Part shown: positions 3,738 through 4,184 of the stretch, piece by piece
Numbering within the stretch: position 1 is the stretch's first letter
Layout of the letters: each line of letters opens with the position of its first letter
Origin: a virus
Taxonomy: Duplodnaviria; Heunggongvirae; Uroviricota; Caudoviricetes
Virus record (IMG/VR): IMGVR_UViG_2537562231_000019
Direction: 5' to 3' (one strand)
DNA length: 5,384 nucleotides
Program-made: the position numbers and the translations under genes
The notes under the pieces: model-generated
What the model was told of the DNA's origin: nothing
Databases searched by the model: none
What the model saw: the letters and a program-made list of their open reading frames with translations, nothing else

Positions 3738-3824
3738 TCACCACCAACGGATTGCCCAGACCAGAACAGCAATGGCCACAATACGAATGGCAAATGCCAT
3801 TGCCCGAATAAGTTCAGCACTCAT
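3738..3824 (-). CDS. Micro-ORF C: 28-aa single-TM peptide ([28 protein letters not shown])
   Basis: ATG 3824..3822; TGA stop 3740..3738 lies 1 nt before the Rz ATG. Aligns gaplessly with micro-ORF B (R-A-[L/M]-A-F-A-I-[K/R]-x-V-A...), with many differences at third codon positions. Confidence 0.35.
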
Positions 3825-3835
3825 CTTTTTAAAGT

Positions 3836-3958
3836 TCACGATTTCAGCGCAATGACCAGTTTTGCCAGCCCATACAGCATCGGAGACACAGCAATACCAA
3901 CAGCCACCCACTTAATAGCAAAAGCCAGCGCTCTGCTGATGTCATCAGTCACTGTCAC
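3836..3958 (-). CDS. Micro-ORF B: 40-aa single-TM peptide ((M)TVTDDISRALAFAIKWVAVGIAVSPMLYGLAKLVIALKS)
   Basis: GTG start (3958..3956) overlaps the stop of micro-ORF A as GTGA. It is the C-terminal part of track ORF 3836..4108, whose N-terminal extension is not protein-like. Paralogous to C (N-terminal part) and D (C-terminal motif). Confidence 0.35.
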   Translation of the reverse strand: MTVTDDISRALAFAIKWVAVGIAVSPMLYGLAKLVIALKS

Positions 3959-4086
3959 CCCAGCAGCCCCGACGAAGACAACATCACCCAGGCGAGGGAC
4001 AGAAAAAGAGCAACCAGCATTAGTGAAAATGAAATACCGACAATCACACACAGGACCTTTGCCGGCGTTATGAGTTTGTCTGACAT
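3955..4086 (-). CDS. Micro-ORF A: 43-aa single-TM peptide (MSDKLITPAKVLCVIVGISFSLMLVALFLSLAWVMLSSSGLLG)
   Basis: ATG 4086..4084 preceded by SD-like AAGGGG; TGA stop 3957..3955. About 26 consecutive hydrophobic residues. Too short to appear in the ORF track. Confidence 0.35.
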   Translation of the reverse strand: MSDKLITPAKVLCVIVGISFSLMLVALFLSLAWVMLSSSGLLG

Positions 4087-4088
4087 AG

Positions 4089-4184
4089 CTACCCCTTAAT
4101 TGCCACAATTAACTGGGATACTACCCATAAAAAAGGGATGCTCCAGACCAGCAAAAATTTCCAGTTTGGTAATTGACTAATCAT
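4089..4184 (-). CDS. Micro-ORF D: 31-aa single-TM peptide (MISQLPNWKFLLVWSIPFLWVVSQLIVAIKG)
   Basis: ATG 4184..4182 preceded by GGGAG 9 nt upstream; TAG stop 4091..4089 lies 2 nt before the ATG of A. C-terminus resembles that of B (P[M/F]L[Y/W]....L[V/I][I/V]A[L/I]K[S/G]-stop). It is the 3' part of track ORF 4089..4301, whose extension crosses the terminator hairpin. Confidence 0.3.
   Translation of the reverse strand: MISQLPNWKFLLVWSIPFLWVVSQLIVAIKG

Follow-up and report, generated by a model that had tools for sequence, protein, structure and literature searches.

Phage P2 carries lysA between its endolysin and spanin genes, and some holin genes produce a holin and an antiholin from two start codons, as in the pairs S107/S105 and S21 71/68. 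In symE/symR, a type I toxin-antitoxin (TA) pair, the promoter of a cis-antisense RNA lies within the first codons of the open reading frame (ORF), and the RNA covers the Shine-Dalgarno sequence (SD) and the start codon. A moron is preceded by its own promoter, is followed by a terminator and is expressed in the lysogen; examples are lambda bor and lom and HK97 gp15. Small membrane proteins have also been linked to lysis: the 65-amino acid (aa) transmembrane (TM) protein Lcc6 of LambdaSo is required together with a pinholin and a signal-arrest-release (SAR) endolysin (bioRxiv 10.1101/2024.01.23.576932), Mu releasin gp25 is an accessory lysis membrane protein (PMC9239132), and the type I pair hokW-sokW aids lysis by the Shiga toxin (Stx) prophage Sp5 (PMC8621323). 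Here we analyze the interval between the endolysin gene R and the spanin gene Rz in IMG/VR record IMGVR_UViG_2537562231_000019, a 5,384-nucleotide (nt) stretch that we refer to as the window and that corresponds to the late region of a lambdoid prophage of E. coli. The interval carries four micro-ORFs on the minus strand, in the order D-A-B-C.

Codon-level comparisons argue that these micro-ORFs are real protein-coding genes under purifying selection in the lysis cassette. Profile comparisons place them in three families, D/E, A and B/C, rather than in one set of four related ORFs, as had been proposed from the letters of the window alone (hereafter the sequence-only reading). The anatomy of a unit is a bidirectional terminator hairpin, a leader of ~35 nt that contains an SD, and then the ORF. 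The explanation that we tentatively prefer, which taken as a whole we place just short of an even chance, is that late operons of enterobacterial temperate phages have, in the R-Rz interval, a slot for variable cargo, filled by mobile units that encode tail-anchored inner-membrane peptides, gated by RNA, which aid or time lysis.

Four micro-ORFs in the R-Rz interval

The four ORFs and their tight junctions (TAG-2nt-ATG, a GTGA overlap, and a TGA 1 nt before the Rz ATG) lie where the sequence-only reading had placed them, and the ORF that it called D is real, with a start that required revision. That reading began D at an internal ATG (4184, Met14), which gives 31 aa. A TTG, GTG or ATG start codon is found 13 codons upstream of this position in at least 15 lineages from ~10 genera, with an SD 5-7 nt before each, and D is therefore assigned to 4223..4089 (minus strand). 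It encodes a tail-anchored peptide of 44 aa (MIDFSKLIRELRLM...AIKG; phrog_6632, 1.3e-12) that starts at TTG 4223 behind the SD GGGAGG (4229-4234) and ends at TAG 4089-4091. After a gap of 2 nt follows the ATG of A (3955..4086, minus strand; 43 aa, single TM; phrog_4906, 4.5e-21), which has the SD AAGGGG 5 nt before it. B (3836..3958, minus strand; phrog_1115, 6.4e-25) has 40 aa from GTG 3958, which overlaps the TGA of A (3955-3957), or 38 aa from GTG 3952. C (3738..3824, minus strand; 28 aa; phrog_4493, 3.8e-6) lacks a recognisable SD; its TGA is 1 nt ahead of the Rz ATG (3736), and its RWW-TGA end carries the SD-like string of Rz, GGTGGTGA.

Each peptide has one hydrophobic stretch, as had been noted, with best 19-residue Kyte-Doolittle means of 1.9-2.9, and in D, B and C the TM segment is at or near the C-terminus. 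A, B (with another start) and C are already annotated by PGAP as hypothetical proteins, and D is unannotated. Hidden Markov models of PHROGs matched the window peptides, over the greater part of the profiles, at E = 6e-5 to 6e-25 and full-length C (C') at 1.4e-24; PHROGs 6632 (D/E), 4906 (A) and 1115/4493/3246 (B/C) have no functional annotation, and they record neither the unit structure of hairpin and predicted antisense promoter nor the correct 44-aa start of D.

Selection was measured as the pooled Nei-Gojobori ratio of nonsynonymous to synonymous differences (pN/pS) in the annotated frame versus the two shifted frames. The ratios were 0.45 in frame vs 0.76 and 1.36 shifted for A, 0.55 vs 0.82 and 1.88 for D/E, 0.18 vs 1.58 and 7.08 for the B core, and 0.32 vs 0.65 and 1.25 for C. 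D-type pairs gave 0.18-0.22 at pS of 0.25-0.6, and window B differs from full-length B (B') by seven synonymous changes and one nonsynonymous change.

Several other ORFs in the region were rejected. Two extended forms in the ORF list, of 70 and 90 aa, are both broken in relatives; one passes across the terminator hairpin, and the other reads through A in a different frame. An antisense ORF opposite D (22 aa, 4183-4251, plus strand) and a 73-aa plus-strand ORF (3852-4073) have unconserved starts and differ in arrangement among architectures. A 33-aa hydrophobic ORF (MTSAERWLLLLSGW...; 3844-3945, minus strand) lies in another frame within B, with its ATG just past the A|B junction, and is found wherever the B core is found. 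The off-frame ratios of 1.58 and 7.08 indicate that this ORF is not under coding selection.

D/E homologues of 44-45 aa occur in Citrobacter, Enterobacter, Klebsiella, Providencia, Brenneria, Pantoea, Sodalis and Trabulsiella, and those of the E type end in IRWW. A profile search against 1.84 billion representatives returned 39 clusters only, with no tie to any known family. D/E is a small family and is restricted to enterobacterial genera wherever the organism is named. The full-length clusters of A are almost all exactly 43 aa, and by tblastn A was found in 276 phage records, including the Stx phages 24B, Min27 and P27, and was unannotated in most of the rows displayed. All copies compared (54 of 54) were 132 nt long and uninterrupted, in 15 DNA variants. 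A D-like/A-like pair with the same 2-nt gap adjoins an M15 endolysin. Compared as a profile, A matched neither D/E nor B/C.

B/C members range from 28 to 60 aa, with full-length members of 48-60 aa in E. coli and Salmonella that consist of a basic N-terminus (MxKYKRILLRLTMKNG...), the core AxAFAI[KR]xVA and then the TM segment. C is a short paralog of B whose family form has 37-50 aa. The homology of B and C and the protein-level selection on them, both suggested by the sequence-only reading, were borne out: 9 of 17 residues are identical in the block that it aligned, the PHROG hits cross over, and the shuffle p is at most 0.0005, alongside the in-frame ratios for the B core and C given above. 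The C-terminal motif said to be shared by D and B was also recovered, with the likeness confined to the tail; the D/E and B/C profiles align over the last 18 residues only (hhalign P = 4.8e-5, probability 68%, 18 columns). Because certain distant D/E members end in a B-like ...FGLAKLL tail, we suggest that C-terminal tails may have been exchanged between these two families.

Two further features recur in D/E and B/C. An [IV]RWW end followed by TGA is common in both families (C, E and distant D/E; window 3738-3752), and its DNA, CGN TGG TGG TGA, also provides the gene that follows with an SD-like string. This end is also kept before non-homologous spanin genes (locus L092) and tail genes (L101), and thus the Rz ribosome-binding site alone does not explain it. 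In addition, an invariant internal ATG lies ~13 codons into the ORF in both families, encoding M14 in D/E (window 4184) and M13 in B/C (L006, L007, L008 and L094), and an SD-like string (GGGAG or GAGG) precedes it. With two in-frame starts, a long and a short product are possible from both types of gene.

No family was found when all peptide forms were scanned against Pfam at E<=1, the NCBIfam scan of the same forms gave nothing useful, the anti-phage defence models of PADLOC gave no family at E<=1, and a PDB sequence search with B' gave a chance-level match only. The literature searched on small proteins of lysis cassettes and on the peptide sequences does not describe these genes, nor does a survey of Stx phages. 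Membership in the holins or pinholins, one of the earlier proposals, does not fit peptides that have a single TM segment each and no Pfam match at that threshold.

A mosaic of portable units

We surveyed 83 R-Rz intervals, comprising 80 IMG/VR loci with R at >=94% identity and selected E. coli loci. D-A-B-C was the architecture of 26 of these, and both B and C were open in all 26. The remainder carried E alone (24 of 83), B'-A (17), A alone (7; in most of these an antirepressor-like gene is inserted ahead of it, the arrangement of Stx phages), C' (4), D-A (3), B'-C (1) or a broken remnant of E (1, L088), and an empty interval was found in none of the 83. The four-ORF form was present at >=80% query coverage in 587 complete E. 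coli genomes, and the plaque-forming phage PhiR5_1 has D-A-B ahead of Rz as well as an unannotated C sequence. In K-12 Qin and DLP12, R overlaps Rz with nothing between them, and the micro-genes are therefore optional cargo.

These architectures bear on the proposal that the array is a pseudogene, decayed by frameshifts from a single longer multi-TM gene (an antiholin like P2 LysA, for example). Each successive ORF is indeed shifted by one frame, and the position matches that of P2 lysA. Nevertheless D/E, A, B' and C' each occur intact, alone or in other orders, with their own SDs, and each family shows in-frame purifying selection. The synteny comparison that had been put forward as a check gave the same answer: no single ORF spans the interval in any relative among the 83 intervals. 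The sole fusion seen was a 96-aa B'-A read-through (P0149), which is a single sequence on a single contig. We consider it very improbable that the array arose by decay of one gene.

Comparison at the DNA level with D-A (L005), B'-A (L006 and L007) and B'-C (L047) intervals located a recombination junction at A|B (3948..3958, minus strand). Here codon ~21 of full-length B' (CCAGTAACTGATGAC) follows the end of A and what was formerly the Rz ribosome-binding site (GGGGTGACGGTGA...), and the joint was made at a short similar string (microhomology). Window B retains the conserved TM core of the 60-aa B' and has lost the N-terminal 22 residues together with the native start and SD, and between the B stop and Rz, C included, the window matches the B'-C interval L047. 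The window array is a recombinant, in which an intact D-A unit is followed by a 5′-truncated B and the short paralog C, and the array as a whole leads straight into Rz. The window copies of B and C, which lack a hairpin, a promoter and good SDs, may be weakly expressed passengers.

It could be argued from this junction that B and C in the window, as distinct from D and A, are non-functional recombination remnants, kept because they are short and carry the Rz ribosome-binding site. B lost its hairpin and predicted antisense promoter along with its N-terminus at the microhomology junction, C has no SD, and the RWW-TGA end of C coincides with the SD-like string of Rz; in the L002/L003 lineage, moreover, B is frameshifted and C is internally deleted, with D and A intact. 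On the other side, B and C are open in every one of the D-A-B-C arrays, B keeps the whole conserved core and has lost what is the variable part of the family, changes between B and B' are predominantly synonymous, and the GTGA overlap with A permits coupled translation. We regard a remnant status for B and C as a serious possibility, somewhat below an even chance.

Two unusual joints involve the B family. A 59-aa chimera on a 554-nt ENA contig (P0225) consists of the N-terminal half of a class II holin (to ...VSPSQW) and the C-terminal half of B (VAVGVAVSPMLYGLAKLVIALKS), and it reflects either a real deletion between holin and B at a short similar string or a misassembly. At ~160-300 nt past R in L029, full-length B' is fused in frame after residue ~45 to tail-fibre-assembly-like sequence, which suggests a large deletion or rearrangement that joined the lysis and tail-fibre regions.

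The same families occur in other contexts as well. D/E genes were found directly after GH19 or M15 peptidase endolysins, in company with holin_8 and holin_3_7 genes and before non-homologous spanins, as well as next to a GH24 endolysin, before a DUF2514 i-spanin in a class I holin cassette, among tail genes in Citrobacter and within a baseplate operon in Klebsiella. The B family is represented between the endolysin and Rz in a Salmonella class I holin cassette, just after tail-fibre genes (L095 and L096), and as a tandem paralog pair at a Salmonella prophage edge, where it follows a SASA esterase gene and precedes a DUF1353 gene (L097, 2305-2668). The members of this pair are divergent paralogs, with a hairpin before the first and none before the second. 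Since L097 holds such a pair, paralog arrays like B-C appear to form repeatedly. From their distribution, we suggest that the units are late-operon cargo that prefers the lysis cassette, with no obligatory tie to it.

A hairpin and a predicted antisense RNA upstream of the first ORF

Just outside 3738-4184, the region described by the sequence-only reading, lie a hairpin and an antisense-promoter signature that it had omitted. The hairpin is GC-rich, lies between an A-run and a T-run (4246..4297, both strands; stem 4256-4288), and was detected by a terminator scan on the minus strand at 4288..4256 with 15 pairs. It is 33 nt upstream of the D start codon in the window, and in every context that we looked at a hairpin with good T-runs in both directions stands 21-42 nt before the first micro-ORF. 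RNAalifold gave 11 pairs, 4 of which have compensatory changes. Because the hairpin is present before the first micro-ORF in all contexts, with stems that differ by compensatory changes, we conclude that this element, which has the shape of a bidirectional intrinsic terminator, travels with the ORF.

A candidate antisense promoter lies within codons 3-12 of D (4188..4216, plus strand) and was the best antisense hit, at the same ORF position, in all D/E lineages. It is composed of the -35 TCGCAA (4188-4193), a 17-nt spacer and the extended -10 TGcTAAAAT (4208-4216), with the TG at 4208-4209 and the -10 hexamer at 4211-4216, and the predicted RNA start is near 4223. Lineages of B/C have the antisense -10 TATACT with TTGTCA, TGGACA or TAGTCA 18 nt upstream. 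The antisense -10 occupies sense nt 8-13 of the ORF in both D/E and B/C, the N-termini of which are unrelated, and the background rate for such promoter scores in the phage DNA of this analysis was 1/1,040 to 1/3,700 per nt-strand. Synonymous variation was assessed in 19 distinct D/E 5′ sequences from ~ten genera. None of the 6 codons within the hexamers (GAT TTT AGC AAA and TTG CGA) varies synonymously, compared with 6 of 7 comparable codons, including the Leu, Ile and Arg codons of the spacer (all three that are not invariant) and later Leu, Lys and Phe codons (Fisher p ~0.004).

The geometry of promoter and terminator predicts a cis-antisense RNA of ~75 nt (4223..4297, plus strand), the 5′ part of which would be complementary to the D start codon and SD and which would end at the terminator hairpin. 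Its predicted fold has two stem-loops (-21.9 kcal/mol) and places the anti-SD CCUCCC in a loop. These in silico results support a predicted antisense RNA gate over the D start, in a layout that would resemble type I TA systems.

Natural variants that bear on the antisense promoter prediction were seen at five B'-A loci (L033, L041, L043, L056 and L062), where a Tyr codon of B' is changed from TAT to TGT (KCKR) and the predicted antisense -10 is weakened from TATACT to TACACT. A standard scan also gave a plus-strand promoter-like site at 4080-4109, which we rejected as being at chance level (1 found vs 1.8 expected) and unconserved in E-type units.

On the sense strand, no sigma-70-like promoter was seen in the 33 nt between the hairpin and D. 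This bears on the view that the units are moron-type cargo unrelated to lysis, acting for example in superinfection exclusion at DNA entry or by altering host membrane physiology, and that they simply insert at gene boundaries of late operons. Mobility, with which the earlier suggestion of membrane-active moron peptides agrees, is evident from the presence or absence of units between genes that are adjacent in relatives, from the recurrence of the same families in lysis, tail, baseplate and tail-fibre slots, and from paralog arrays elsewhere, as in L097. The layout does not agree with that suggestion. In classic morons the promoter comes first and the terminator last, the reverse of what the array shows, and because the array lacks a sense promoter and has a terminator directly upstream, expression in the lysogen is unlikely; nor did the peptides match PADLOC models. 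We consider cargo of this kind an unlikely explanation.

Possible role in lysis and relation to known systems

We infer that the products are late-expressed membrane peptides that assist or time lysis. In the mechanism that we propose, the only source of the sense peptides would be antiterminated late transcripts that continue past the hairpin. The promoter within codons 3-12 of D, and its counterpart in full-length B/C genes elsewhere, would fire backwards to give the ~75-nt antisense RNA. By running over the start codon and SD as far as the same hairpin, this RNA would keep the peptide off in the lysogen and delay it after induction. Once made, the peptides would insert into the inner membrane and might weaken or depolarise it, and this perturbation might help in triggering the holin or in freeing the SAR endolysin, in the way that HokW assists prophage Sp5; the whole of this action at the membrane is the most speculative part.

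Several observations weigh against this explanation. The literature searched held no expression, toxicity or lysis results for these peptides, and Rfam gave no match over the region at E<=1. Classical type I toxins have their own promoter, and none was seen for D. The D/E antisense promoter was found post hoc, and its -35 is weak (3/6). An alternative cause of the frozen codons could be sense translation, including the SD GGGAG for the invariant Met14, or recent recombinational spread of a shared 5′ segment, and the hairpin may simply be a terminator, or an element for mRNA stability, that moves with the unit. Neither a hairpin nor a promoter belongs to A itself. The frameshifted B and deleted C of the L002/L003 lineage mean that at least these two genes are dispensable, and the presence of D/E and B genes in tail and baseplate operons speaks against an obligatory link to lysis.

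If the hairpin is just a terminator that Q-modified polymerase reads through, the peptides could be dedicated lysis accessory factors with no RNA gate, which bind TM domains of pinholin, SAR endolysin or the i-spanin Rz and act as antiholin-, releasin- or Lcc6-like timers. The units stay between endolysin and spanin with three unrelated types of endolysin and with differing holins and spanins, A always lies directly before Rz or before the Rz-proximal ORF, the junctions permit translational coupling into Rz, and Mu releasin (PMC9239132) and Lcc6 are precedents. The B core also has a weak similarity to the second TM domain of pinholin (shuffle p ~0.01, uncorrected), and the P0225 chimera joins holin to B. 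The similarity, at p = 0.0095 for the 60-aa B against the class II holin, is uncorrected for 15 tests and fails that correction, and it is absent from the homologue C (p = 0.92). Further, the K-12 Qin and DLP12 cassettes, which have the same holin and R type, do without these genes, D/E and B genes also reside in tail, baseplate and tail-fibre regions, the type of micro-ORF tracks no single holin or endolysin type, and the frozen synonymous sites are left unexplained. Accessory factors of this sort are, in our view, improbable as the full account, and an RNA-gated lysis helper continues to be the explanation that we favor.

A broader and more doubtful claim, which we judge rather unlikely, is that D/E and B/C represent a new class of portable 'late-gated' units, in which a bidirectional terminator, an antisense small RNA promoter lying within the first twelve codons and a tail-anchored peptide, perhaps with a long and a short form from its two in-frame starts, would together form an RNA-timed, membrane-depolarising lysis helper that can operate at any site in a late operon, with A as a further conserved micro-protein that most sequenced Stx phages would carry without annotation.

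In the window, the minus-strand order is R, the micro-ORF interval, Rz with embedded Rz1, a TonB_C lipoprotein gene, a DUF3950 gene (plus strand), an HNH endonuclease gene and the small and large terminase genes. R (4379..4912, minus strand) encodes a lysozyme of 177 aa (Pfam Phage_lysozyme, 1.3e-23) and is a lysozyme in a near-identical E. coli record; its assignment to the R21-type SAR endolysins follows from its hydrophobic N-terminus and the literature on that type, and is probable. Downstream of the array are the i-spanin gene Rz (3269..3736, minus strand; Pfam Phage_lysis, 7.5e-50) and, inside it, the o-spanin gene Rz1 (3331-3516, minus strand; Pfam Rz1, 1.7e-21). The lipoprotein with a TonB C-terminal domain (2604-2945, minus strand), named 'TonB family protein' in RefSeq, occupies the slot after Rz that bor or other cargo uses in other lambdoid phages.

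At its far end the window enters the left end of an IS1 element (InsA; 5102..5384, plus strand; Pfam InsA domains, 1e-21). The uninterrupted prophage L001 (NZ_CP009050) is collinear with the window up to 5101, with 63 mismatches, all but one of which lie below 1100; there are none across 2611-5101, and the two are identical over 3700-4400. In L001, ydfR and a 71-aa class II holin gene are annotated just upstream of R. We conclude from this comparison that IS1 separates R from ydfR and the holin, and that this prophage type does have a holin, displaced here by the insertion. The earlier statement that there is no canonical holin thus holds for the window and not for the prophage type. The insertion point is 190 nt upstream of R, and IS1 truncates a plus-strand ORF (5018-5128) after codon 28, the homologue of which in L001 has 90 aa (WP_000369850). 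The late promoter is likewise cut off by IS1 from R, the micro-ORFs and Rz, and in this copy the entire cassette may therefore have impaired late expression.

The lysis cassettes of lambdoid and Stx phages are among the best-studied gene sets, yet a 43-aa gene before Rz in 276 phage records has gone mostly unannotated, and two more families of micro-proteins recur in lysis cassettes and at other late-operon sites. Should the peptides prove to tune lysis, burst timing would be affected and, for Stx phages, so would the release of toxin. An antisense gate, if true, would be a compact and portable way to limit a membrane-active peptide to late infection, and it would tie type I TA biology to phage lysis beyond the single case of hokW-sokW.

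Among described systems, the class II holins and pinholins (S21, PF04971) differ from the micro-gene products in having two hydrophobic segments rather than one; the peptides have no Pfam match at E<=1, and the cognate 71-aa holin is a separate gene upstream of R in relatives. Accessory lysis proteins (Lcc6, releasin, LysA and antiholins) are similar in being small inner-membrane proteins encoded in, or acting with, lysis cassettes. Lcc6, however, is essential and encoded far from the lysis genes, whereas the micro-genes are optional. Mu releasin is a DUF2730 protein, and the peptides have no DUF2730 Pfam match at E<=1. P2 LysA, compared here by its description, is alike in position and is multi-TM, whereas the micro-genes encode single-TM peptides and occur independently of one another. 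Morons resemble the units as extra genes between genes that are adjacent in relatives, being mosaic, portable and often membrane proteins, but the array has its terminator-like hairpin upstream, runs into Rz with no terminator after it and has no sense promoter that we could see. Type I TA systems (symE/symR, hok/sok and hokW-sokW) differ in sequence (no match of the micro-genes in Pfam, NCBIfam or Rfam) and in that D has no promoter of its own and sits behind a terminator within a late operon; the peptides are tail-anchored, with the TM segment at the C-terminus, unlike Hok, and their antisense RNA and toxicity are predictions. In other respects the type I systems are alike: they too encode membrane peptides of <60 aa, to be compared with 44 aa for D, 43 for A, 40 for B (60 in the family form) and 28 for C, each with one TM segment, and the micro-genes share with them carriage on prophages; the antisense RNA predicted here would likewise start from a promoter within the first codons of the ORF, lie over the start codon and SD and stop at an intrinsic terminator.

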